This document shows positions 22,646 to 64,000 of a stretch of DNA of 64,000 nucleotides, piece after piece. Position 1 is the stretch's first letter; each line of letters opens with the position of its first letter. A program made the position numbers and the translations under genes. The notes below the pieces were generated by a model, which was not told where the DNA came from, made no database searches, and saw only the letters and a program-made list of their open reading frames with translations. This stretch comes from Candidatus Bathyarchaeota archaeon (GTDB lineage: Archaea > Thermoproteota > Bathyarchaeia > TCS64), in the NCBI GenBank assembly GCA_963771885.1, contig CAVYVF010000007.1, positions 109,089 through 173,088 on the forward strand. Reading direction: 5' to 3'.

Positions 22646-24425
22646 TTAGAGTGTGGCTTCGAGCTGGTCAGCGAACTCGTCAAACTGCTGTATACCCTTA
22701 CGCCAGAACTCCTCTTTCGTCACGTCAAAGCCGAGCTCCTCGGCGAGATCGATGGGGCTCCTGCTGGAGCCAGCGGATAGCAGGGCGTTCATCTTTGGGA
22801 CGAACTTCTTGCCCTGCTCCTTGAATAGGCGGTAGAGGGCGAAGACGAAGAGCTGGGCGTAGACGTATGGGTAGTTGTAGAAGCGGTAGTTGGGTATGTA
22901 ATAGTGGAGCTTCATGGTCCACTCCCACTTCATCTCGGGGAGCCACTCGACGGCGTCCCCGTAAATCTTGTCACGGCCCGCAGTCCAGAGGCTGGAGACC
23001 GTTTCCCCGTCTAGGAACTTTCCTGCCTTTATGGCGTCGTACATGCTTTGTTCGAAGAAGACGCGTGCGCTCACCTGATAGGCGGCCATGCCGAACTCGT
23101 CGAGGACATTTGCGAGGATAGCCTGCTTCTCCTCCCTCGTCTTGGCTTCGGCGAGTAGCCTGTCTGTGAGCAGGAGCTCTCCGAATACGCTCGCCGTCTC
23201 CGCGATACAGCTGCCTATCTCGTAATTGCTGGGCTTCTGGTGACGTGAGCCGAGGTAAGCGTGGACGGCGTGACCTAGTTCGTGTGCCTGGGTATAGACG
23301 TCCCCCATCTGGCCGTTGAAGCTTTGGAGAACGTATGCACTCTTACCCGCGAGCCATGTGGAGCAGAATGCACCACTGCGCTTACCCGTGCGTACCTCGC
23401 CGTCTATGTGGCGGCGCCCGTACATCTCGTCGACGTATTCCGCCCAGACTGGGTCGAAGCTCCTGTAGGCGGAGACTACCTCTTTCCTCGACTCTTCCCA
23501 AGTATACTTCTTCTCGGGCGCCTTGGGGAGGGGGGCGACTATGTCCCAGTTGCCAAGCTTCTCCAGACCCATGAGCCTCGCCTTGAGGCGGAGGTACCGA
23601 CGGTATGATTCTACGCTGTCCTCCATAGTCTTCATAAGGGCGTCGATCGCACCCTGCTCGACGTCGTTGTCTATTAGGCTCTGCGTCATCGGAGAGGGCC
23701 ATTTCCTCCACTCGCACATCTGGATATGGTCGCCGCAGACGCTGCGTATGGCGCTCGCCCAGACAATATCATCCTTCCCGAGGCCGTCGTAGACGACCCT
23801 GTTCGCCTCCTGTCTGAGCGCTCTGTCCCTGCTCTGGTAGAGAGCTATGATCTCTCCATAAGGCATCGTCTTCTCGACGCCATCGACCAATATCTTGAAC
23901 TTGCGGGTGCTAAGCCAGTCCCCCTGAAGCTGTGACCATGCGCTGACGCCGTTCTGGTCCTTTGATATGGTAGAGCTTCTCTAGTTCCTCAGTCATCACG
24001 TGGGGTATGCGGAGGACAACGCGTTCGAGGAGGTGGCTGTACTCCTTTAGCTTGGAATCCTTGACAAGGGCAGGTTTTGCCTTGAGTAGGGCACCTAGCT
24101 CTATCTCCAAGAAGGCGAGTGCCTGCCCCGCCTTGTTGCCCGCCTTGCGCACTGCTTCATAGAGCCTCTTCGAGATCGGGTCGACGGAGTTGGCGCTGTA
24201 TCGGAGCCCGCAGTACTCCATTGCGCCCTCGTATCTGAGCGTAAAGGCGTCCCGGGCCTCAAGCAGTTCAAGTAGCCTCTCGGCGTCTAGCCCTGTTATC
24301 TTCCCCCTATACCTCTCGGCGAGCCTATTCGCCTCGCCGACCATCTCCTCCAGCCTCGCCTCTATCCATTCGGGTTCGGTGCTCTCAACGAGCTGTGCCA
24401 GGTCCCATCGCATAGCCTCAGACAA
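22646..24425 (-). CDS. pepF: M3 family oligoendopeptidase F (frameshift near 23970)
   Basis: N-terminal WDL, GKRSGAFC, AHELGH, AETAS, HYY...FYNYPY; split over two ORFs. Confidence 0.88.
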
Positions 24426-33209: not shown

Positions 33210-33881
33210 TTACTGTAGCGGGATGAGTCTAATTGCCTTCGTCGGGCAGATGTCGACGCATAGGCCACAACCGAAGCAGATGTCCTTATTGAACTCGAGC
33301 TTGCCGTCGACGATCTTGCGAGCACCGAACTGGCACCGTGTAATACAAGCACCACAGTCGGTGCACGCCTCCGGGTTCGTTAGTGTTGTGGCTATTGACT
33401 TGACGAGGTGAGTGTTCTTACCAACTTTGAGGGTGGCGCCCCAGACGCTGCAGGCGCATGAGCAGCAATTGCATATGTAGTTGACTCCCTCGGGCTTCGG
33501 CGTGTCCGTCCTCGTGTAAGCCATTGGGACGAGGCCCGCCTCGTGTGCCATCTCAACGACCTTGATGGCCTGCTCCTTCGTTATCTCCCTCGCTTTGCCC
33601 CTGCTGATCTGGAGCTCCGCGGCGTCGTTTAGTTGGAGGCAGGTCTCCAGTGGGTGGTCGCACACCTTCCGCTTTGTCCTGCATACGCAGTCCTTGACCG
33701 AGATCCTCCTAGCCTTGTCTATGTAGCCCCTGACGCTGTCGAGGTTGAGTACCGTGTTGCTCAGCTTGATCTCCTCGAAGATAGGGAGGGCTATTCCCGC
33801 GGCTATGTTGTACGAGTCGGCTATCGCCGACTCTTGGTCGGCCTCGTCGAGGAACGGTGGGACGTGCTTCTTCTGCGGCAT
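33210..33881 (-). CDS. 4Fe-4S dicluster protein with Cys-rich domain
   Basis: CVCR..C..C, ICNCCSCAC, two CxxCxxCxxxC motifs. Confidence 0.82.
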   Translation of the reverse strand: MPQKKHVPPFLDEADQESAIADSYNIAAGIALPIFEEIKLSNTVLNLDSVRGYIDKARRISVKDCVCRTKRKVCDHPLETCLQLNDAAELQISRGKAREITKEQAIKVVEMAHEAGLVPMAYTRTDTPKPEGVNYICNCCSCACSVWGATLKVGKNTHLVKSIATTLTNPEACTDCGACITRCQFGARKIVDGKLEFNKDICFGCGLCVDICPTKAIRLIPLQ

Positions 33882-33990: not shown

Positions 33991-35232
33991 ATGAGGCTCG
34001 CGATAGTGGGCGCCGGCATCAGGGGGTGCAGCTCTGCCTACTTCGCTCACAGGCTCATGCCGTCGCTCGATATTACCATCTACGAGCGATCGGACCGGGT
34101 CGGCGGCCGCGTCTACGGTGTGAACATCGACGACGAGTGGGTCGAGGTGGGAGCCTCATTCTTCAAGGGCGGTCACAGGCTGCTCATCGGGCTCCTCACT
34201 GAACTCGGCATAAAGGTGAGCCCGGTCACCCGCCCAAGGTCGATCGGAGTCTGGGACGGCGAGAAATTCACACTCAAAATAGACAACTCAGTCGTAGCTG
34301 CCATACGTTTACTCACGCGTCACCCCTGCGACATCCTGAGGCTATATTTGATGCTCCGTGAGCTGGGTAGTAGAAACCGAGCCCTCTACAGCGAAGTGGA
34401 GAGCCACCCTAGGGAGTGGGACGAGCTCTACGCAACCGCAGGGATCAACGAGTGGCTTGAAAAGACGTTGGAGGAGACACTGCTCGAACGAGGAATCCAC
34501 CCACGTTTCATCCATGACGTGGTGGAGCCGGTAATCCGCGTCATCTACAATCAGGCGAGCTCGATGAACGCCTACGCTGGGCTCTTCACGGTGGACATCT
34601 TGAATGGACGGACATACAAGGTCGTCTCCGGCAACGAGGTCATCCCACGGAGGCTTGCAGAGGTTTCGGGTGCCACAGTGAGGCTGGGCACAGAGGTCAA
34701 AGGCATCACAAAGGGTAACGATGGTAAATACGCAGTCTCTGGAGAGGGCTTCTCAGACGAGTACGACGCGGTCATCATAGCAAATCCCGACGCCTGCCAT
34801 CTGATACCTGGATGCCTACCTGTGAAGTATCAGCGTGTATACGTACGGATCATACGTGGCACGTTGAGGGATTCTTATTTCAAACTCCGCTCCGGGCAAA
34901 ATCTCCCTGAAACCATTGCGTCGACCCGTGAGGTCCCCTGGACCCACATCATTAAGCTCCCATCTGCAGAGGTCAAGTCTTTATACAGTATCGCCTCCCC
35001 GACTCCTATAGACTACCTCGAAGACATCTTCGCTGAGCACGAGGTGGTCTTCGAGCACGACTGGGAAAAGGCATATCCCGTCCTTGAGCCTGTAAGGGAG
35101 TTGCCCAGATGCAATGTTGGGCGTCTCCTCTACTACCCGAGCTACTCCGAGTCCGCCGTATCTGCAATGGAGTCGTCGGTTCTCTCCGCCCTCAACTGCG
35201 TGAACAAGCTGAAACGCGACTTGGAACGCTGA
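33991..35232 (+). CDS. FAD-dependent oxidoreductase, prenylcysteine oxidase/lyase-like
   Basis: GAGIRG, VGGR, EVGAS, RVIYNQ, MNAYAG, SGN, W.KAYP, LYY...ESAVSAMESS.LSA.N. Confidence 0.72.
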   Translation: MRLAIVGAGIRGCSSAYFAHRLMPSLDITIYERSDRVGGRVYGVNIDDEWVEVGASFFKGGHRLLIGLLTELGIKVSPVTRPRSIGVWDGEKFTLKIDNSVVAAIRLLTRHPCDILRLYLMLRELGSRNRALYSEVESHPREWDELYATAGINEWLEKTLEETLLERGIHPRFIHDVVEPVIRVIYNQASSMNAYAGLFTVDILNGRTYKVVSGNEVIPRRLAEVSGATVRLGTEVKGITKGNDGKYAVSGEGFSDEYDAVIIANPDACHLIPGCLPVKYQRVYVRIIRGTLRDSYFKLRSGQNLPETIASTREVPWTHIIKLPSAEVKSLYSIASPTPIDYLEDIFAEHEVVFEHDWEKAYPVLEPVRELPRCNVGRLLYYPSYSESAVSAMESSVLSALNCVNKLKRDLER

Positions 35233-35284: not shown

Positions 35285-36269
35285 GTGAAGGTCATCGACG
35301 TCCATAACCACATCAACCCACGGCCCTTCCTCGATGCCGTGAAGGCCGGCCGCAGCTGGCACGGCTTCACAGCCAAGCAGGGTGAGCTAGAGAACCCGAG
35401 GAACAGCTGGGACTCTCGAGGAACGCATCAGAGAGATGGATGAACTCGGCGTGGGAATGCAGGTGCTCACCGTCTACGGCGACTTCAACAAGTATGATCT
35501 CGCGCCTGCCAAGGCGAAAGCGGTCTTCGAGGCATGCAACGATGAGGTGGCGGCGATGGTCGACGACCACTCAGACCGTTTCGTGGGGATGGGTATACTC
35601 CCTATGCAGGACCCTGATGCCGCCGTGGTTGAACTCGAGCGCGTCGTCAAGAACCTCGGCTTCAAGGGCGTGACGATAAAAGACCACATACTCGGGCACA
35701 CTCTCGATGAGCCACAGTTCATCCCCTTCTGGGAGACGGCCGAGCGGCTCGGCGCCGTCGTCGAGTTCCACCAGGGTAGCACAATCGTCTTCGAGCGGAT
35801 CCCACGCTACTTCCTCGAGAACACCGTTGGCAACCTCGTCGAGAGGACGCTCACGTACGGCGCACTCGTGCAGGGAGGCGTAATGGACCGCTTCCCCGAG
35901 CTGAAGGTCTGCCTCCTCCACGGAGGCGGCTACGTCGCCTTCGCCATAGCCCGCATGGACAAGGGCTGGGAGGCGGCAAAGCTCGACTACATGGTCAAAT
36001 ACTCTGCCGAAGAGAGCCGCCAATCCCTCCCGAAGCCCCCTAGCAGTTATGTTGGACGCTTCTACTACGACTGCGCCACCTTCAGCGAACCTACACTCCG
36101 CTTCCTGATAGACGCCGTGGGAATAGATAGAGTCGTCTTCGGCACCGACTATCCTTGCCCAATGGAGATGATAGACTCCGTCAACTGGATCAACGGCTTA
36201 AAGAGCCTCACGGAGTCAGAGAAAAAAGCGATTCTCGTGGATAACCCCGCCAAAATGCTAAGCATGTAA
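35285..36269 (+). CDS. Amidohydrolase_2 (ACMSD-like decarboxylase/hydrolase); frameshift near 35410
   Basis: GTG 35285 gives IDVHNH; an extra G in TGGGACT joins it to the 35436 ORF (HGGG, FGTDYP). Confidence 0.83.
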
Positions 36270-36895: not shown

Positions 36896-39079
<2,184 letters not shown>

Positions 39080-45136: not shown

Positions 45137-47858
<2,722 letters not shown>

Positions 47859-53274: not shown

Positions 53275-54833
53275 TTACACCTGAGCTATTCCCGCGTGGC
53301 GCGATCTAAGATCATCGGCCATTGCCATAGCCGTTGCGAGTGATGTTGCTGGGAAGGCCGCACCCGTCTCATAAGATTTTGCAAAGTCGATGTGAGTGCG
53401 AAGTGTGTCAGGTCGGTATGGCTTCCAGGTGTCGTATTCAAAAGCTTGAGGCAGATCAAAACGCTCGTACACCGACTTGTGCATTGTTGCATCGTCCGAT
53501 GGAAGTTTTCGATGCTGCTCTGTCCACGTTCGTCCCGTGAGGCGGGTTATCAACCCCCACCCGCTTCTTACCTCGTCGTGCCGTCTGCCTTCAGGTGATG
53601 GGTGAGTGATCAGCAAGGCCTCATCGTACCTGATGGGTTTTGGGATAACTGTTGCCTGCTTTTAGCAGCCAGCGCAATGTTGCGTCGGATAATCGGGATT
53701 TGTTTTCCTCGTAACCGCCTCCTATGTCGGCGTGATTGCCGGGAAACCAAACCTGTTCAAAAAAGATATTTCCGTTTTGATCGCGCACTCCCAGTGTAGT
53801 TTCGCCTCGATACCAAGGGACGCGGTCGAAATCTTTGCGGTTCTCATCGATTGAGATAGCGTGCTTGGCGTAGAGAACGTTGGGATTAAGCGTGTAATCG
53901 TAAAACTTCAGGTACAGGTCTGTTAGATGGATGGTGCGAAGTTTCTGCTTCCAGTCGTACTCATCGATATCAAAATCAAATTTCAAGTGTGTGTAGATGT
54001 AGGCCACGATGGCGGCAATGAAGGTCGCTCCCACAACGCCGATGAAGTTCCACCAGAACGAGCCAAGAAAAGGTACAAGCTTGCCTAGCAAAGGTAAGTC
54101 GGGGGCGAACAAAAGACCCCAACTTGCTACTGCGTCCATGATTAGGAACAACACGATGAGCGACAGCAACATCGTGGGGTTAAGCAGCGCCGCAACAGTG
54201 TCGAATATGCCGATGAAATATGGGTATACATTTGCCGGGGTAGTAGTACCAACCGAGTGATGTTGTTGTCGAAATCGTTGTGCAATCAAGTCACGCGTTT
54301 GCAGAAGAAACCGTTGCCGCGGTGTGGCGGAATGCCAAGGCCGTGACGACGTAAACTGATACACATGTTTGACCGCGTGTGATGCGAGCTGCCGGCTAGA
54401 GGCAGTATCTAACTTTAGTGGTTTGCCGTCTGGAAGTCGGGTGGGGATACCACAATTGGCAATGACGCCTGCCAAGCAGCGGACGGTGTAAGCGCCACGG
54501 CTAAAGCCGAATAGGAAGATTCGGTCACCCGGGGCGCCAAAGCCGGATAATTGCAGCGTAACAATCGACGATGTTTGCCGTAATTCCAAAACCGGTGGCT
54601 TGGCTAATCAGATTGTAAATCTTTCTTCCGACCCATCCAAAAGCGAAGCGATTGTCTCGCGGCGATCCAAGGCCAGGATCGTAAAAGGCTACTTGCTCTG
54701 CTGGATCGATTGGCGAATTTGGGCCACAACGTGTGGCGCGGAATAACTTGTAAATATTGGTTCGATCTTCGTCGAACGTGACACCCCCGGCTTGCCCTGT
54801 GCCATCTGAAAAGATCAGGATATTCTTTGCCAT
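53275..54833 (-). CDS. DUF2235 (Tle1-like alpha/beta hydrolase) with internal TM segment; ~2 frameshifts
   Basis: KNILIFSDGTG, FYDPGLG, GFSRGAY, GIFDTV, HAISIDENR, VWFPGNHADIGGG. Confidence 0.85.
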
Positions 54834-54999
54834 GCGCTCCCTGCCAACACCAGGTCGAGGTACGGCGATTGTCGCATCCGGACCTGATAGTCGAAATAGA
54901 GGCGGGCCCGCGTGATTAAGAGCACCAGCGGCTAATGACTATTTGCAAACTTGCCCGGTGTCGAGACGAGTGAATAGTTCACGCGCGCCCGGAGATGAT

Positions 55000-55047
55000 C
55001 CGACATTGATTGAGCAAGCTGCGTGATGTCCGCTTATTGCTAAGCGA
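55000..55047. repeat. Palindromic repeat family copy 2 (degenerate)
   Basis: CCGACATT...ATGTCCGCTTATTGCTAAGCGAC. Confidence 0.6.
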
Positions 55048-55071
55048 CGAACGAGACGGGCGTCTTTGAAC

Positions 55072-55260
55072 CTAACGTGATCCAGTTGTCGCGGCTGGAG
55101 TGCGCAGGTGCGCCGAATTGCTGCTGGTGTCGCGGTTTTGGCTGTTCATGAGCCATCCGCCCACAATGATGAAAAGGAGCCCGATTACAAGACCAAGCGC
55201 CACAAAGACCTGCACACCTTGGACGTCGCGCCCACTCCTTTTTGTATTTCGCTCCAACAT
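55072..55260 (-). CDS. Small single-TM hypothetical protein
   Basis: ATG 55260 with GGA-rich upstream sequence; hydrophobic VFVALGLVIGLLFIIVGGW. Confidence 0.45.
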   Translation of the reverse strand: MLERNTKRSGRDVQGVQVFVALGLVIGLLFIIVGGWLMNSQNRDTSSNSAHLRTPAATTGSR

Positions 55261-55425
55261 AGCGTGTGTCCTCTTAGAGAGGGGAGAACGACCGTCTCCA
55301 ATGTGAGTTCCCAAGGCGACGTTTGTCGGCAGACCACATGTCTAGCTTGCCCCCGAGTTCCCAAAGGACCGGCAGCCCGTGCTGGCGGCGCATCTGGATC
55401 GCTCGTTATTTCTTAAAAGTCGCGT

Positions 55426-55500
55426 ATGTCGGCTGCTGGATGTAAAGCAAACATCTTGCTGACTTGGTCGCAATGTCCGCTTATGACCCAAAGCGACATT
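55426..55500. repeat. Palindromic repeat family copy 3 (doublet)
   Basis: ATGTCGGCT..GTAAAGCAAACAT, spacer, ATGTCCGCTTATGACCCAAAGCGACAT. Confidence 0.8.
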
Positions 55501-55719
55501 AGCCGGGCCGTTCAGCGACCTGTGCCTGACCTATCCAGTCTCCCCATGAGATGAGATTTCGGCTCCACGCCAGCGGCTATTTAGAACCGCTTAACTTTAA
55601 TGCCTGCATAGTCATTTTGTGACCGCATCTTTCACGCGATCAAGGTCGGTCCACGCGCTTCAACCGGCGCGATCGATCATGCCGTCAATGTAAGCAAACA
55701 AGTTCGAGTAGCGTTGATT

Positions 55720-56900
55720 ATGACGGATGCGACCGCGGCGTTCTATAACGTCCCTTCTTTAGACGGTCGTGGTCTCCCCTCGGCAACTATCGACGGGTTC
55801 TGAACGGTGTGGTGGTCGGCCTCGGGACCGTGGCCGCCGTGTGCATCCTCGTCACCACGGTCACGGTGGCGGCTGCATGGATTATCAATACCGCTCTCGC
55901 CACCAATCCCTATATCCGTGTGCGCGCGCCGTCGGGGACGCTGGCCCTCGCCAAACACGGGCCGACTCTGGCTAGCGCCGTGGATGTGTCCGGGTCGACG
56001 CAGGTTTCGACCGCTCCCGTCGACGCTCCGGATGTTGTGACCTTTGAGGCAAGATGGGCTCGCACGACGGCTTCCGCACCAACCAGAGCAGAGCCGCTTG
56101 TATCGGAGCGTCCTCTCGAACGCGCGAACAATGTGTCTTCGCCGCCGCCGCATCCACTGGACCTTCCACAGAGTCAGGCGAAGCCTGAAATCGCCCATGC
56201 CCTCGATTTAACGCATACCGCCAAATTGACTCCCGCTGCGGCCCCCTCTTCTCCACCCTTCAGAACCCTTCCGCTACCGCCGAAGCGCCCGGCCGAATGG
56301 GCCAATAACGTGCCGCTGCCGCAACCAAATCCAGCGAAGCATGAACTAGTTCGTTCGCTCGTCGGCCAAACCGCTTCGCCGGTCGCAGCGGCTACGCCGC
56401 CGCCAGCATCCACCTCTGAGAAGCAGGTTATTCCGCCGCAAGTTCACGACAAGTCGATGTCGCCGCTCGATCCCGACAACCGCGCCGCGGTTTATGACAT
56501 CTCCGCGCGCACGGTCTATTTGCCCAACGGTGAAAAGCTGGAGGCACATTCGGGGTTGGGTGACAAAATCGATGATCCTCAATACGTGCACGTCAGGATG
56601 CGCGGGCCGACTCCGCCGAATGTCTACGACCTCACATTGCGAGAAAAGCTATTCCACGGCGTTCGGGCCATCCGCCTCAATCCAGTCGACGACAGCAAAA
56701 TGTTCGGACGCGATGGCATTCTGGCACATTCTTACATGCTGGGTTCCAACGGTCAGTCGAATGGATGCGTGTCTTTCAAGAATTATCAGAAATTCCTGCA
56801 AGCCTTTTTAAGCGGTGAGGTCGACCGACTTGTCGTGGTGCCCAATCTTGGGAGCGAGCCTTCGCGTATCGCCCGCGCTCGGCTTGCGGCGGTGCCGTAG
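55720..56900 (+). CDS. DUF2778/Tlde1-domain (L,D-transpeptidase-like) membrane-anchored protein; 5' frameshift(s)
   Basis: AVYDISARTVYLPNGEKLEAHSGLG, GPTPPNVY, AHSYML...SNGCVSF; Pro-rich linker. Confidence 0.85.
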
Positions 56901-56964
56901 CCGCGCCGTTGATTCGTCTTACCGCCTGATCCTATTATCGCCCCTACGCAAATGGGCCGACGCA

Positions 56965-57315
56965 ATGGGCTACAACGCACGCAACGATGAAATCCGCGAC
57001 AACGTCACGCGGATGCGGCGTGAGTGGGAAGCGCAGCGGGACGCGCTGGCAACCGTCCGCCGCTTCAATGCGCGGCTCTCGGCCAAAAGCTATGCGTGGT
57101 TCTGGCCCAAGATCGCCGCCGCGCTAACTTCAAAGCATCATTGGTTGGTCATCAACTGCGACAGTTGTGGGACCGTGGTGGATTTAGACTTGCGCGTGAA
57201 GCCGCGCGATCCGGAAGCCTCCATCCGTATGGCGCTACGCGACGTGCGCTGCCCTCGGTGTAATGGGTATGGCAGGCCGCGCATCATTGCGCTGGCGCAG
57301 CATCCGTCCATCTAA
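56965..57315 (+). CDS. Hypothetical zinc-ribbon protein
   Basis: CDSC...CPRC. Confidence 0.6.
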   Translation: MGYNARNDEIRDNVTRMRREWEAQRDALATVRRFNARLSAKSYAWFWPKIAAALTSKHHWLVINCDSCGTVVDLDLRVKPRDPEASIRMALRDVRCPRCNGYGRPRIIALAQHPSI

Positions 57316-57439
57316 AGACTTGCTAGGCAAGCGAGTTCCAGATGCCACCGCGCCGCCGGAATACCACCATCAAAATACCCTGTGCGCGAGTCGAGATTTA
57401 GACGAACGCCCCACGGATCATGATCCTATAATCCTGCCC

Positions 57440-57958
57440 ATGCGAGGGAGAGCCACGCCGCTACTGATAGCGTTTTCGCTTATAGCGCCCGACGTTCAGG
57501 CGTCGGCACAATGTATGACGAAGCAGGAGGCGCGCGCGAAATGGTCCACGAAGCCCATCTACTCGCACGGTTCGAGCCGCTGCTGGGATGACCAACCGCT
57601 GAGCAGACGCGCTACGACTACGCCGCCAGCAAAAACGTCGGATAGCGCCACTAAGGCGCGCGCGCTCGACGTCTCCGCGCCTCGCCCGAAGGCGACAAAA
57701 ACCGAGGTCTTTTCCCCATCGATCATCGTCAATGACAACACCGATCTGTTCAACGGCGCGCCAATGACCGGCTGGCGGGTGTTGATTGACATCGATGGCC
57801 ACCAAGCGCCTGACCCGAACAACGGCGTCGACGGTTGCTGCTGGCCATCACTAGATGCGCTGAAAGCATTGATAGCGGGCGGTGAAATGACCCCTCGGGT
57901 GGCACGCCCTTCAAAAGTTACCCCGATGGTTACCCCGACGAGCGCTGGAAATCCTTAA
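57440..57958 (+). CDS. Hypothetical secreted protein
   Basis: Signal-peptide-like N-terminus, then CMTKQEAR..W...Y.HG...CW. Confidence 0.45.
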   Translation: MRGRATPLLIAFSLIAPDVQASAQCMTKQEARAKWSTKPIYSHGSSRCWDDQPLSRRATTTPPAKTSDSATKARALDVSAPRPKATKTEVFSPSIIVNDNTDLFNGAPMTGWRVLIDIDGHQAPDPNNGVDGCCWPSLDALKALIAGGEMTPRVARPSKVTPMVTPTSAGNP

Positions 57959-58051
57959 GCCCATTACGGCATCCAGATCCCGTTAAAGTGACAGTGCCCC
58001 CGATGCTCGCTAAGTTTCCGCTCCTGCCCCCCAGCAAAGGAACCGCATTCC

Positions 58052-58567
58052 ATGACAATCTCCATGTACAAGACTTCCGTGCCCATTTTCGTGCAATTCC
58101 TCACCAGCATGTCCGCGGTGCTCGACAAGGCGGCCGCGCATTGCGAGGCGAAGAAGATCGAGCCGGCAACGCTCCTCAACATGCGGCTTTATCCCGACAT
58201 GTTTCCGCTGGTGCGGCAGCTGCGCGCGGTAACCGATCATGCCATCAGCGGCACCGCTCGGCTCGCCGGCGCGGAACTAATCACTTTTCCCAACACTGAA
58301 GCGAGCTTCCCCGAGGTCAAGGACCGCATCGCGAAGACCATTGATTTCGTCAAGAGCTTCAAGCCGGTGCAGATCGACGGCACCGAGGACAAGGAGATCG
58401 TTGTCAAGTTCTCGAGCGGAGAGCGCAAGTTCAAAGGGCAGACGTTCCTGCTAAACTTCTGTTTGCCGAATTTCTATTTCCACGCCACCACCGCCTACGA
58501 TATCCTGCGCCATTGCGGCATCGAGCTCGGCAAGCGCGATTTCATGGGAACGCCGGTAGCACTCTAG
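58052..58567 (+). CDS. DUF1993 family protein
   Basis: RLYPDMFPL, LPNFYFHATTAYDILRH.G..LGKRDF. Confidence 0.9.
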   Translation: MTISMYKTSVPIFVQFLTSMSAVLDKAAAHCEAKKIEPATLLNMRLYPDMFPLVRQLRAVTDHAISGTARLAGAELITFPNTEASFPEVKDRIAKTIDFVKSFKPVQIDGTEDKEIVVKFSSGERKFKGQTFLLNFCLPNFYFHATTAYDILRHCGIELGKRDFMGTPVAL

Positions 58568-58594
58568 GGTAGCGGGTTCGCGCCTAGATCGAAG

Positions 58595-59218
58595 ATGAAA
58601 CTGAATCCGCAAGACCTGGAAAAGATCGCCAGTCTGACGTTAGATCATTACAACCAGCGCGCCGAAGAGTTTTGGCAAGGCACGCGCGATCACGACGTCA
58701 AACAGAACATCGCTGCGCTGTTACAATGGATCGAGGGCAAACCGCCTTTTACGATACTGGATTTTGGCTGCGGGCCCGGTCGCGACCTCAAGGTGTTTTC
58801 TGAACTCGGTCACATAGCTGTAGGTTTGGAGGGTGCCGCTCATTTCGTCATGATGGCGCGCACCCATAGTGGCTGCGAAGTATGGCAGCAAGATTTCCTC
58901 AAGCTCGATCTGCCGGACAATCATTTTGATGGCGTGTACGCCAACGCATCGCTGTTTCATGTACCCAGCCAGGAATTACCGCGCGTGTTGCTGGAACTGC
59001 ACGCTAGCCTGAAACCAGGTGGTGTGCTGTTCTGCTCGAACCCGCGCGGCCATAACGAGGAAGGCTGGAATGGTGGGCGCTACGGCGCGTATCATGATCT
59101 CGATACTTGGCGCGGCTATGTGTCAGCTGCGGGATTTTCTGAGCTTAATCACTATTACCGCCCCGCCGGACTGCCGCGCGAAAAACAGCCTTGGTTAGCG
59201 AGCGCCTGGCGTCGGTGA
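58595..59218 (+). CDS. Class I SAM-dependent methyltransferase
   Basis: ILDFGCGPGRD, FDGVYANASLFH, LKPGG. Confidence 0.9.
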   Translation: MKLNPQDLEKIASLTLDHYNQRAEEFWQGTRDHDVKQNIAALLQWIEGKPPFTILDFGCGPGRDLKVFSELGHIAVGLEGAAHFVMMARTHSGCEVWQQDFLKLDLPDNHFDGVYANASLFHVPSQELPRVLLELHASLKPGGVLFCSNPRGHNEEGWNGGRYGAYHDLDTWRGYVSAAGFSELNHYYRPAGLPREKQPWLASAWRR

Positions 59219-59240
59219 GGTGGAGCAGGCATCACACGGC

Positions 59241-59312
59241 ATGTCCGTTATCGGGGGTAAGCGGATATCGCGCGGACTTGCCGCCATGTCCGCTTTTGAC
59301 CCAAAGCGGATG
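59241..59312. repeat. Palindromic repeat family copy 4 (doublet)
   Basis: ATGTCCGTTATCGGGGGTAAGCGGATAT, spacer, ATGTCCGCTTTTGACCCAAAGCGGATG. Confidence 0.85.
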
Positions 59313-59394
59313 GCCCGACTAACTTAGCGTCGAACCCGCTTGTCTAGCGGATCCGATGTGCAGCGCGCGCACCGGTTTGGCCATGCCATAGAAG

Positions 59395-59422
59395 ATTTCG
59401 CTTTTGGGGTAATAGTCGGCAT
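59395..59422. repeat. Palindromic repeat family copy 5 (GGGGT-loop arm)
   Basis: ATTTCGCTTTTGGGGTAATAGTCGGCAT. Confidence 0.55.
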
Positions 59423-59467
59423 GGAGTGGAAGTGCTGGCGGAATGTTTTATGAGTACTCGCCCTCGC

Positions 59468-59911
59468 CTACCCCGCGACGTTCAACGGGATGGGCAACTC
59501 GTGCTTGATCATATCCACGTCGCGTTCGTTATCGAATATCGTCAGCCGGAAGCGCATCACCTTGTTCTGTTGCTCGTTCTGCGGCGGCTCGATTTCGATC
59601 GCTCTGTAGGTTGGACTTTGATACGGAGCCAGCTTGTACGCGCAGTCGATGGCGTATCGCGCAAACCGCTCGAACCTCGCCTCATGCCCGCGTGCGTTCT
59701 CCGGCTTTTCTGCTAGCGCCGCAGCACGCTCGGTATCGGCAATCTCGGCGAAGACGTGCATGTAGTGGTCAATAACTTCTTTGCCCAGCTTGCGCCCTGA
59801 AGCCTGGGCCTCAGCGATGTCGCGTTCGGCAATAATGGCCTTCTCGATCGTCGCTCTGTTTTTCGAGCCGCGACGACGACCGGCGTTGGGACGCTTTCCA
59901 CCACGTGGCAT
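59468..59911 (-). CDS. Hypothetical protein with terminase-small-subunit-like N-terminus
   Basis: MPRGGKRPNAGRRRGSKN, LAPYQSP. Confidence 0.55.
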   Translation of the reverse strand: MPRGGKRPNAGRRRGSKNRATIEKAIIAERDIAEAQASGRKLGKEVIDHYMHVFAEIADTERAAALAEKPENARGHEARFERFARYAIDCAYKLAPYQSPTYRAIEIEPPQNEQQNKVMRFRLTIFDNERDVDMIKHELPIPLNVAG

Positions 59912-60047
59912 GGCGCGGATATTTGATTAAGAATCAAAAAGAATCAAACACCTTTTGATTTTGGCCGGTCGGGCTTTTGATTATCGGAAACACGTCACTA
60001 GTCCGGAAATCTTGGGTCGCTGTGGGCGGTTTTTCTATCGTGCAAAT

Positions 60048-60074
60048 ATGCCGCTAATGACCCCAACCGGACAT
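60048..60074. repeat. Palindromic repeat family copy 6 (GACCCC-loop arm)
   Basis: ATGCCGCTAATGACCCCAACCGGACAT. Confidence 0.65.
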
Positions 60075-60118
60075 CGAGCTGACCAACAGTGTGCTAGACT
60101 TTGTCAGGCGGCCGATCC

Positions 60119-60562
60119 ATGCAGGCGGAGCAGTCAATCGTCGTTGATCCAAAAAGTCCTGGCAGCATCAGCTCGCCGCACGGCCTGATCCTGTTCGACG
60201 GCGTGTGCGTCCTATGCTCGCGCGGCTGCGGCTTCGTGAACAAACGTGATCGCCGCGGCTATTTTCGCTTCGTTCCGATGCAGTTGGCCGAGGGACGTCC
60301 GCTCGCTGAGCAGCTTGGCATCAATCCTGATCGCCCGGATTCTTTTGCGTTCGTGGAGAACGGCCAGGCCTATGTAAAATCCGAAGCCGTGCTGCGTATT
60401 GCGCGCGAGCTTCCGCGCTGGCAGTGGACGTGGCACTTTCACTTCATGCCACGGGTGATCCGCGACGCGATCTATGACTTGGTCGCGCGCAACCGCTATC
60501 GCTGGTTCGGCCGTCGTGACGCTTGCATGCTGCCGAATTCGGATCGTTCGTGGCCATCGTGA
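60119..60562 (+). CDS. DCC1/YuxK-like thiol-disulfide oxidoreductase
   Basis: [31 protein letters not shown]. Confidence 0.9.
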
Positions 60563-60564
60563 AC

Positions 60565-60654
60565 CACCGCCGAGGCCAGAAACCCGGCTCGATCCACCGC
60601 AAGATTGTGTCAGGCTGAACGACACGAGACAAACCGAACAGGCTTGGCCAGAGC
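60565..60654 (-). pseudogene. Internal fragment of a transposase related to the 61240-62340 IS
   Basis: [20 protein letters not shown] versus LWPSLLGAAQVVQPETILRW. Confidence 0.75.
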
Positions 60655-60757
60655 GGCCGACGAAGTTCGAACTTGCCATCAACCTGAAGACCGCCAGATC
60701 CATCGGGCTCGCAATCCCGCCCACGCTGCTCGCACGCGCCGACGAGGTGATCGATAA
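60651..60757 (+). pseudogene. C-terminal fragment of ABC substrate-binding protein (PF04392-like)
   Basis: [34 protein letters not shown]. Confidence 0.85.
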
Positions 60758-60770
60758 CTGTGCGCGCATA

Positions 60771-60836
60771 AGTCCGCTATCGGCCCTTAGCGGACATTCG
60801 AATGACCGCATTCCGCTTCGGGGGAAAGCGGACATT
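60771..60836. repeat. Palindromic repeat family copy 7 (doublet)
   Basis: GTCCGCTA-tcggccct-TAGCGGAC, spacer, TCCGCTT-cggggga-AAGCGGACAT. Confidence 0.85.
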
Positions 60837-60912
60837 GGTGTTCGGCGGGTTAGGCAAGAGCTACCGAACGCCGAGGCGAGCCGCGCCGAATTGGCGCGGC
60901 TCCAGGCACAAG

Positions 60913-61066
60913 TCACTTTAGGCTGTCAGCCACCTTGGCGATGCCGGCATTGGCGCAAGCCTCGTCCTTCTCGCCGCCGGGGGCGCCGGAGACGCCGACC
61001 GCACCGATCACCTCGGTGCCGGACTTGATCGGTACACCGCCGCCGACCGCAACGACGTTCCCGCGT
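60913..61066 (-). pseudogene. C-terminal fragment of GlcG/HbpS heme-binding protein
   Basis: [35 protein letters not shown]...*. Confidence 0.8.
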
Positions 61067-61069
61067 AAG

Positions 61070-61243
61070 GGGATTATAGAGCAGGCGTTGAAATTTCGTT
61101 TGCCGCTATTCGGACCCAGCCCGCTCCTTGCTCGAGAGGGAGGGCTGATGTCTTACTCACCCAATCAGGTGGACCTGTATCATCGCGCTGCAGACTATGT
61201 TGATCGCATTTTAAAAGGTGCCAAGCCCGCCGATCTACCTGTC
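61070..61243 (+). pseudogene. Internal fragment of PF04392-like substrate-binding protein, cut by the IS
   Basis: EGGLMSY...AADYVDRILKGAKPADLPV, then the IS end. Confidence 0.85.
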
Positions 61244-62340
61244 CTTTCCGAAAATCATATCCGGACGTATTGGTGATGCAGTCCGGCCAAGATCGGAATG
61301 CCGACAATGGCGCCAGATCGCTGGACGGCTCGATGCAAAGGCGCATCTTTCTGTAATGCCAGGTGCGTGCGCGCTTGATTGTAATAGGCCGCATAGGCGG
61401 AAAGAATTCGCCGCAGATGCGCCTCGCCAAAGATCAGCATTTGATCCAGGCACTCGCGACGCAAGGTGCCGATCAGACGTTCCGCAATGCCATTTTGCCA
61501 CGGCGATCCAGGCGAGATCGGCCGGTCGCGGATACCCATGGCTCTCACCCGAGACGTAAAGACATGCCCGTAGGCACGGTCGTTGTCGCGCACCAGATAA
61601 GTCGGCGCTGATGCCCAAGGAAAGGCTTCGGTGATCTGCCGGGCCAGCCACGCCGCCGTCGGATGCCGTGTCACCTCAAACCACAGCAGCTGTCGCCGGC
61701 CGTGGCCTAGAACCAAGAACGCAAATAAGAGATCGAAGCTCACCGTCCGCACCACGCACATATCGATGGCGGCTATCGCCTCAGCGTGATTTCGAAGAAA
61801 CGTCTTCCAGCTCTGCGACGGCGGCTTCCCACCTCGCGCCATGTATTTCGAGACTGTCGACTGGGCGACCTCGAACCCAAGCATCAGGAGCTCACCATGG
61901 ATCCGGGACGCGCCCCACAGCGGGTTTTCCCGGCTCATTCGCCGGATCAGATCACGCAGGCCTCGGTCAATCCTCGGCCGCCCTGCCCTATTTCGCGACT
62001 TCCAGCGCCAGAACATTTAAATCCAGCGCGATGCCACCGCAGGATCGTCTCCGGCTGAACCACCTGGGCCGCACCAAGCAGGCTCGGCCAGAGCCTGGTC
62101 ATCCATATGAGCAGGACGCGATCACTGCCGCGAAGCCGAAGACGAGGTGGCGCCCGCCGCAAGGCGATGTTGAGCTGATGACGAAGAAACAAATTCTCGG
62201 CTTCAAGCCGGCTGCGCGACTTGAACAGGTCGGCGACAAACATTCCGAGCGCGTGCAGGATCGCAAACATCGCTCTCAATGATGCGATGATTCTGCCTTA
62301 CGATGCGAATTTAGGCCGGATGGAATTTTCGGAAAGGACA
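61240..62340 (-). mobile_element. IS element (DDE integrase-core transposase, TGT...ACA ends, IS481-like)
   Basis: Perfect inverted repeats CTGTCCTTTCCGAAAAT (61239-61255) and ATTTTCGGAAAGGACAG (62325-62341). Confidence 0.88.
61255..62279 (-). CDS. Transposase (frameshift near 62016)
   Basis: LEAENLFLRHQL, WGASRIHGEL, AID, RDND, PWQNGIAERLIGTLRRECLD, YYN..R.H. Confidence 0.88.
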
Positions 62341-62426
62341 GCGTCGCGCAACACCCACAGGAGTGGTGTGTCGCCGTCGACATCGACGCTGTAGGTCTTC
62401 CCATTGACTTTAATTGCGAAGTCCAT
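62341..62426 (-). pseudogene. N-terminal fragment of a (2Fe-2S) subunit (IorA/CoxS-like), truncated by the IS
   Basis: AAGGAG SD, then MDFAIKVNGKTYSVDVDGDTPLLWVLRD. Confidence 0.82.
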
Positions 62427-62489
62427 TGCGCTTTCTCCTTCACTTTTAAGTCAGGCCAAGTCGCCAGCGACAATTGTGGGTGACGATAC

Positions 62490-62971
62490 TCAGCTATGAC
62501 GTCGCCCCGAGCGGCGTTCCAAAATCGCTCGCTGGTAGTCAGCGAGCAGCGCCGGCTCATCGATAGACCCATGGTGATGGAGTTGCCGCCACATGCCACG
62601 CATCTTGACGAACCATCGAGACGTACGAATTCGAAGCTCAAGCCGAACGGCGGGAGTTTCACAGTAGCCTTTTTCACGTCCCACGAAGAGATGAAAGTCA
62701 TTGTTACCCTGCGCTACGAAATCGTGGAACGCCACGCGGACAATCGCTGGCCCGCTAAATAGCTTCGCATAACCTTCCCTGATGGCAGGCCATCCTCGCC
62801 GAATACCACCAATCGGATTGTCCATGCTCGGAGCCTCCCCATCGGCCCAGTTGCCAGCGAGTGCGTTCAGATCGGAAGCGTTGAAGGACCGGTAAAAATC
62901 GATCAGTGCATCAAGCGCGCTTCCATCGCCTGCTGGCGATTCTTTCCCGATATTTCGGCAGGAAGGGACAT
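62490..62971 (-). CDS. NTF2/SnoaL-like protein (5' frameshift)
   Basis: FYRSFNASDL, GWPAIREGY, WRQLHHHGS. Confidence 0.7.
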
Positions 62972-63057
62972 AGGATTCTCCCGTCGCAGTTCATCATCTT
63001 TCTTTCGACCACTCCGGGTCTTTGAACTCGCGCTTCACGCTAATTCCGCCGGTTGAC

Positions 63058-64000
63058 CTAATTGCGGCCGCCGTCGACAGCGAGATCGACGCCAGTGACG
63101 TAGGAGTTTCGACGAGGAGAGCGCACACTGCGCGGCGGCCCGAGATAGGGGAATTCGGCAAGCAGATCGCCGTGCGGCCCTACCCTATCCTTGGTCACCT
63201 TCCCGTTGGTGAGCACGGCCACGAAGGCATCACCGGCGTCGTCGGTGAGTGTCCGCCCACTGCTCGGGAAGGATGCGGGGCGGGTGGGATCATAGGACAT
63301 TATCTCCGGCAGCAGCGTGCCTGCCACCTGCCTTGCTTTTCTTGCGTGTACCCACCCGCGTGCTCCAGCGAGTGCGCAAAGACAGGAACGAAACGAGCAT
63401 CGTCGGCCGGCTCACCTGCGAGGTACGCGTCTCTTTCTTCGCCGACAAGGAAGACAGCTTGTGCGGGCAGCGCGCCGCGATCGACCTGGATCCAGCCCCC
63501 GGCCCGCGATCAGTGTGCGGGCCCACAGCCCACCCGTCTGGTCCCAAGATCAGAGTTGGGCACTTCCAGCACGATGCTGCACACGTCCTTGTCGGCGAAA
63601 AAATCGTCGCCGGTGAACTGCTGATTATTCACCATGCCGTGCACGTCAAAGAAGAAGGGATCGCTGCGCCAGCCCGCGAAGAAACGGTAGTCGCCGGCCT
63701 CTGTCACCCGCGCGTCCCGACCCATCGAGACCTGTGCCGATGCGACGATAACTCGGCCGCTATCGTCCGTCCCGGCGGCCTGCGCGCCCTCAACGCGGCG
63801 CAGCGTGGCGCTTTGCGACCCGTCCTCGGACGCCGAAAATCGCACCCGGTAGGCAATATCGGCGATGGCATCGCCGTTCGTGTCGATCTTGAGTTCGTAC
63901 AGTGCCTCGGGCGCGAAGGGCTCGTCTGTGGTGGGACCTGGCGGGGTCACGACAGCAGACGGGTGCACGTTCATCACCAGGATCGACTTGGCCGATGCGT
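63058..64000 (-). CDS. DUF4331 family protein (partial, frameshifted)
   Basis: YELKIDTNGD, FAGWRSDPFFFD, SIVLEVP, GRTLTDD, FPYLGPP. Confidence 0.8.

Follow-up and report, generated by a model that had tools for sequence, protein, structure and literature searches.

A prenylcysteine oxidase-family flavoenzyme in Bathyarchaeia, with accessory isoprenoid genes beside its relatives

An open reading frame in a 64,000-nucleotide stretch of Bathyarchaeia DNA (contig CAVYVF010000007.1; the whole stretch is called the window below) raises the question of whether an archaeon can encode a true relative of prenylcysteine oxidase (PCYOX), which to our knowledge is documented only for clearing up after protein prenylation in eukaryotes, and on what substrate such an enzyme would act. 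The frame is intact, with 413 codons and zero internal stops, and is a genuine member of the PCYOX family (Table 1). An N-terminal Rossmann FAD domain is followed by the PCYOX substrate domain, which scores 107 bits with the Pfam Prenylcys_lyase family PF07156 (cut-off 27) over model positions 6-346 of 363. The top PDB sequence match is the ancestral PCYOX1 9fxq (E 2.3e-25, residues 2-403), and the second is a protoporphyrinogen oxidase (E 1.2e-9, N-terminal 75 residues). With an AlphaFold model built from a 41-row alignment (pLDDT 93.6), Foldseek placed 9fxq at rank 1 (TMq 0.89, the runner-up 0.70), and VIA-align superposed 406 residues of the model on 9fxq with Z 45.7 and an rmsd of 1.9 Å, the next fold having Z 31.2. 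Thus, the PCYOX-like flavoenzyme proposed in the original prediction is borne out by the family match and the fold, and the Pfam search suggested with it gave a score well over the cut-off. The motif order given there was recovered as well, RVIYNQ/RVNYGQ, MNAYAG/INGFVG, SGN/GGN, W-x-AYP and ESAVSAMESS/EWAASAMEMS aligning in order with 9fxq, and the opposite outcome named at that time, best matches to protoporphyrinogen or amine oxidases with Prenylcys_lyase missing, was looked for and not found. The identity of a protoporphyrinogen oxidase (HemY/HemG, TIGR00562) was rejected at 46 bits against 97.85 and over residues 3-81 only, and a protoporphyrinogen or amine oxidase in general by the restriction of the sequence matches to the N-terminus and by structural Z values of at most 31.2; the NCBIfam matches were all N-terminal and below cut-off (protoporphyrinogen oxidases and desaturases, the best at 50 bits against 517). 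Signal peptide and transmembrane helix are absent, with a top 19-residue hydropathy of 1.29 and six residues before the GxGxxG, so the window's protein is taken to be cytoplasmic and may associate with the membrane.

Table 1. Features of the PCYOX-family gene and its surroundings in the window
Feature	Position	Strand	Basis or remark
4Fe-4S ferredoxin-like gene, divergent, 109 bp from PCYOX gene	33210..33881	-	profile match
PCYOX-family FAD enzyme gene	33991..35232	+	413 aa; PF07156, PDB match, model
Rossmann FAD-binding start (GAGIRG, ExSxRxGGR, ExGA)	33991..34176	+	PF13450 residues 5-62
Prenylcys_lyase domain, residues 99-403	34285..35199	+	PF07156, 107 bits
Active-site/tunnel segment, residues 183-203	34537..34599	+	alignment to 9fxq
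W...AYP (Y362 = Tyr433) to ExAxSxME flavin-flanking motif	35062..35172	+	alignment to 9fxq
Amidohydrolase (PF04909), downstream	35285..36269	+	frameshifted near 35409
Catalase-peroxidase, 1.7 kb downstream	36902..39079	+	recognised by eye

The residues of PCYOX1 were mapped on the archaeal protein by sequence alignment with an offset of +20, confirmed by the structural alignment, which places Tyr221, Val234 and Tyr433 at Y186, F199 and Y362, respectively; the equivalents of both the essential Tyr221 and the flavin-side Tyr433 are kept. The PCYOX1 mutants Y221A and V234W were reported to be inactive and Y433A active, and the mechanism was described as hydride removal from the allylic C1 followed by hydration (PMC11530802). 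In the family alignment P363 and E394 are invariant, and the position of Y186 is occupied by Tyr in 164 of the 186 rows. The candidate tunnel positions F199, D202 and I203 are atypical: the counterpart of V234 is Phe, not a small residue, in a column with Val or Ile in 132/186 rows and an aromatic residue (F, W or Y) in only seven, while D202 and I203 stand where Ala/Ile and Gly are usual, position 203 being Gly or Ala in 131/186 rows and Ile in eight. R11 and D202 are confined, among these 186 rows, to the five-sequence subclade of the window's protein, in which the loop near residues 266-280 is also shorter. As judged from the alignments, the window's protein appears to keep the catalytic Tyr on a remodelled tunnel helix, and the chain-length or head-group preference of its subclade has probably shifted.

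The opinion that the family is usually regarded as eukaryotic, also held in the original prediction, stands for the literature that was searched, where no title or abstract on a prokaryotic PCYOX was found (subscription papers lying outside the coverage) and no functional study of prokaryotic Prenylcys_lyase proteins; it fails for the databases, where members from Halosegnis longus, Halobacteriales, Myxococcota and Nocardioides are already annotated, together with a Thermoproteota 'Prenylcys lyase protein'. The archaeal presence of the gene is therefore already public through these annotations, and what is added here is its distribution in Bathyarchaeia, including a cultivated species, its association with UbiA and terpene synthase genes, and the subclade with the altered tunnel. 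PF07156 was found in 17 of 401 genomes of the class, belonging to four families, in 5 of 401 genomes sampled from the phylum, all five within the class, and in none of 14 control genomes, and a search with the family alignment detected the PCYOX gene in 2/71 genomes of the host family; a scan of the genome collection with the single protein gave one weak and unrelated match. The family member WGM89536.1 is labelled by NCBI as Ca. Bathyarchaeum tardum, the cultivated species, and the congener G008 has a 63%-identical fragment of the gene at a contig end. In the relatives L035 (G361), L030 (G185) and L098 a frameshift or stop interrupts the PCYOX-family gene, consistent with frequent loss or with assembly error. 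A viral scan with the family alignment gave weak matches (E 2e-7 to 3e-6) in three viral contigs, two of them labelled GVMAG.

In the family trees, which included ten deep-branching proteins without a taxon label, the 12 rows grouped as Bathyarchaeia (six from genomes of the class and six unlabelled look-alikes) made up, together with two unlabelled rows, a supported set of 14 (SH-aLRT 97), and the window's subclade stood on a long stem of 0.73 substitutions/site beside the other Bathyarchaeia rows. The bacterial and haloarchaeal rows came out as a group of their own (93), surrounded by eukaryote-like rows, where the branches are unstarred. The free tree splits the 39 prokaryote-like rows, but their forced monophyly was not rejected (p-AU 0.141).

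The host genome has 2.46 Mb and is 92% complete and 6.7% contaminated. Proteins from genomes of its class bear the NCBI names Ca. Bathyarchaeum tardum, Bathyarchaeota and Thermoproteota, by which the class is taken to be Bathyarchaeia. A bacterial-looking region with Tle1-like and Tlde1 domains, DUF1993, an rve_3 integrase and DUF4331 occupies positions 53600-64000 of the window and is possibly a chimeric join or contamination. For the PCYOX gene itself contamination or chimerism was rejected, as it lies 19 kb before this end among archaeal neighbours and is accompanied by the congener fragment and syntenic contigs: the contigs of one public run, which may be related to the source sample, span the junctions of the ferredoxin gene with the frame and of the frame with the amidohydrolase at ~95-97% identity. 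An archaeal DUF211 gene stands at 48 kb of the window, and the GC3 of the PCYOX gene is 0.70, compared with 0.75-0.82 in nearby housekeeping genes. At the frameshift of the amidohydrolase gene a related-strain contig has one base fewer, and the split frames at 22646-24425 and 45137-47858, which by eye we take to be peptidase-like and cation-ATPase-like, suggest further indel errors. The product of the ferredoxin-like gene is a possible electron acceptor, but the gene is not a PCYOX neighbour in the congener. The catalase-peroxidase is presumably KatG-like, and a polysaccharide deacetylase is also found among the neighbours. A conserved operon around the window's copy was rejected, since other genes surround it in G008 and in every relative of the class, and no isoprenoid genes were found among the neighbours of this copy.

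The neighbour clustering in relatives covered 74 loci, made up of 17 stretches from genomes and, out of 63 metagenome loci, the 57 left once six short or spurious ones had been omitted. The PCYOX frame was detected in 72 of them, a set in which many loci are short and some nearly identical. Directly upstream in 17 of the 72 is a gene for a UbiA prenyltransferase (PF01040), which belongs to either type A (14 loci, tandem or divergent, 68-100% identical among themselves) or type B (three near-identical loci, ~26% identical to type A), both of which score under every NCBIfam cut-off, DGGGPS included. This adjacency amounts to about two independent links on the tree, the chance of two such events being roughly ~0.4-2% if 20-45 contexts and six UbiA genes per genome are taken. 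Type-A orthologues are present in 46/401 genomes of the class versus 14 of the 16 other PF07156 carriers, and occur without PCYOX in 32 of the 46. In the genus g41, they were found in 5/6 carriers against 17/56 genomes (Fisher p 0.008), and four of the five type-A-bearing carriers have the two genes adjacent and therefore co-inherited; in the family f29, the ratio of 4/5 to 10/18 is not significant (p 0.31). Because the type-A linkage, confined to one subclade, may be one inherited event, the Fisher values are overstated. The congener G008 has a type-A gene, as do only 3 of 17 congeners in all, and among the six UbiA genes of the host genome none is of type A or B, no type-A orthologue being detected at E<=1e-30 and no tblastn match with either type. 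The type-A neighbourhoods of 10 genomes, compared by ORF lists with six neighbours profile-scanned, gave no common partner; an example of this uncharacterised subfamily is L034:5028-5927. Elsewhere in the host genome, at G000:C23 (L121:5290-7124), two divergent UbiA-family genes were seen head to head beside a Mur-ligase-family gene.

In six loci, spread over three parts of the tree, PCYOX adjoins the gene of a small PAP2-like membrane protein. PF01569 was found in 40% of one atlas cluster, which is a lead only, the family itself having no Pfam match; it is widespread (107/401 genomes of the class, 63/70 of the host family, 2/104 in f11), and its co-occurrence with PCYOX across the class is weak. 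Examples of it are L024:3420-4031 and G000:C22:235064-235573. The only plasmid match was that of Actinarchaeum halophilum (NZ_CP071308.1), where the PCYOX copy lies among transposases, 3.3-8 kb from two pairs of polyprenyl synthase and terpene synthase genes. These pairs, in which the terpene synthase is SRPBCC-fused (L126:1-5658), look like an archaeal terpene gene cluster. The gene cysK adjoins PCYOX in 2/74 loci, one in G008 and one in G118, where a serine acetyltransferase-like gene accompanies it. The link to isoprenoid genes thus holds for the relatives and not for the window's copy.

The recycling of lipid-bearing cysteines from the cell's own lipidated proteins, which was also put forward in the original prediction, found no support in the search of the host genome. 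Neither the beta (PF00432) nor the alpha (PF01239) subunit of protein prenyltransferase gave a match there; weak PF00432 matches occur in two of four other carriers, and a PF01239 match below the cut-off in one. DUF63, which we take to be AliA, was absent from all five carriers, the host included, and present in three euryarchaeal controls. AliA was described from Euryarchaeota and DPANN and given as arCOG02177, with few lipoproteins in TACK (PMC12462473), and cysteine S-prenylation is treated as eukaryotic (PMC13290415). No CaaX-type excess was seen in the host genome: of 2216 ORFs, 25 have Cys at -4, as compared with 14-29 at offsets -3 to -7. The lipidated-protein route is therefore left without support, as is a role downstream of CaaX protein prenylation in this genome, the family membership being unaffected. 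Such recycling has in its favour the archaeol-thioether lipoproteins of Haloferax (PMC12462473) and the ICMT-family genes of the host, although the latter occur in 5/14 control genomes as well. The reading is very improbable on these counts, the more so as the thioether carbon of archaeol is not allylic.

Scavenging, in which farnesyl- or geranylgeranyl-cysteine of eukaryotic detritus would be degraded to recover cysteine and isoprenoid, agrees better with a host where no endogenous protein prenylation was found and with a patchy accessory distribution (2/71 in the family, 17/401 in the class), as for a niche gene. However, no conserved transporter or catabolic cluster is found among the neighbours, the enzyme has no signal peptide, and the linked genes consume prenyl diphosphates and do not break them down, so this source of substrate is considered distinctly unlikely. 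The accessory prenyltransferase genes linked to the family in relatives speak instead for an endogenous substrate, and the reading tentatively preferred here, which is quite possible and still short of probable, is a PCYOX-type oxidative cleavage of a small endogenous S-prenyl thioether, connected with accessory enzymes that use prenyl diphosphates. The flavin would take a hydride from the allylic C1 of a polyprenyl chain bound through sulfur, as in PCYOX1, and the thiocarbenium ion formed would hydrate to release a prenyl aldehyde and the free thiol. In Bathyarchaeia the substrate would most likely be made in the cell, as a product or side-product of accessory enzymes, such as the non-DGGGPS UbiA prenyltransferases and terpene synthases, and would not come from the breakdown of prenylated proteins. 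Against this stand the facts that we know of no UbiA enzyme that prenylates sulfur and that F199 sits where V234W abolishes the turnover of PCYOX1 (PMC11530802).

The same residue belongs to the case for another substrate, according to which the long-branch subclade of the window has abandoned isoprenoids for the oxidation of an amine or of a smaller thioether (S-alkyl or S-aryl cysteine). The stem of 0.73, the subclade residues R11, F199, D202 and I203, the shorter loop 266-280, the cysK neighbour in G008 and in G118 (there with the serine acetyltransferase-like gene) and the lack of isoprenoid genes near the window's copy all suit it; the whole PCYOX domain with the Tyr221/Tyr433 equivalents is kept, though, the cysK link is limited to 2/74 loci, and PCYOX1 does not act on geranyl- or allyl-cysteine (PMC11530802), which makes such a departure unlikely, if worth keeping in view. 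The same hydride abstraction might also be directed to an O-linked allylic prenyl group, that of geranylgeranyl glycerol ethers (the unsaturated archaeol precursors) or of prenols from a PAP2-like phosphatase. It would be chemically analogous, the UbiA-family and PAP2-like membrane genes are neighbours in relatives, and PCYOX1 takes salirasib with its non-cysteine head group (PMC11530802), but the cysteine-binding Tyr is conserved and most Bathyarchaeia do without the gene although all of them make ether lipids. This option is doubtful and seems to us improbable; C-H abstraction is less favoured beside an ether oxygen than beside sulfur.

Oxygen complicates the preferred cleavage of an S-prenyl thioether. 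Ca. Bathyarchaeum tardum did not grow with 2% O2 (PMC10477458), and no match to COX1 or cytochrome bd was found in the host genome, which together are awkward for an oxidase. In these hosts a PCYOX-type oxidase would act on transient O2 only or use another acceptor, so its flavin may pass its electrons to O2 when that is briefly present, or to some other acceptor under anoxia. A heme-copper oxidase subunit I (COX1) was observed in another Bathyarchaeia carrier, at G369:C11:54476-55810. The anaerobic life of the hosts would suit a redox-neutral, O2-independent flavoenzyme acting on polyprenyl chains as an isomerase or lyase, like the fatty-acid isomerase of P. acnes, the structure of which (2b9w) comes at structural rank 3 with Z 30.6; at 14% identity it is 15 Z units under PCYOX1 and tied with amine oxidases, and such an activity is the most improbable of those considered.

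That archaea in which protein prenylation is not detectable, a cultivated one among them, have PCYOX means that the family has another physiological substrate, and the UbiA link offers a concrete enzyme pair to assay. If the activity proves positive, it would be a new branch of archaeal isoprenoid metabolism, with a bearing on isoprenoid recycling in sediments and on the origin of the eukaryotic enzyme. A bolder and rather improbable extension is that Bathyarchaeia keep an old archaeal PCYOX branch for their own isoprenoid chemistry, with the orphan UbiA, in a prenylation/deprenylation cycle of a small thiol or in the cleavage of allylic geranylgeranyl ethers. If true, it would be the first enzymatic route by which prenyl linkages of the archaeal lipid type are opened in anoxic sediments, and the branch would be a candidate ancestor of the eukaryotic enzyme, predating protein prenylation; the accessible text of a review of archaeal lipid synthesis (PMC9385802) contains no mention of lipid catabolism, recycling or an etherase.

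Compared with known systems, the archaeal protein shares the FAD fold and N-terminal similarity with protoporphyrinogen oxidase, the monoamine and putrescine oxidases and the fatty-acid isomerase PAI, which differ in that their matches are N-terminal, far under the cut-off and of Z 31.2 at most. The database-annotated prokaryotic Prenylcys_lyase proteins, the Actinarchaeum plasmid copy among them, represent the same family in the same cytoplasmic form, their haloarchaeal and bacterial members lying on a branch separate from the Bathyarchaeia rows, with 26-29% identity to the window's protein. The main Bathyarchaeia clade (including WGM89536.1, the protein P0248) is the sister of the window's subclade and has the same length class and motifs, while its identity to the window's protein is 32-35%, its position 203 is mostly Gly and position 199 Val, Ser or Ala, and it is linked to UbiA and PAP2-like genes, neither link being seen for the window's copy. 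Mammalian PCYOX1 is ~25% identical to the archaeal protein, which is ~60 residues shorter, is devoid of the signal peptide, the ER/lysosomal targeting and the ER-retention tail, has Val234, Ala237 and Gly238 replaced by Phe, Asp and Ile, and belongs to an anaerobic host in which no protein prenyltransferase was found; nevertheless, mammalian PCYOX1 and PCYOX1-like (PDB 9fxq; PMC11530802) have in common with it the two-domain fold, PF07156, the Tyr221/Tyr433 equivalents and the order of the motifs.
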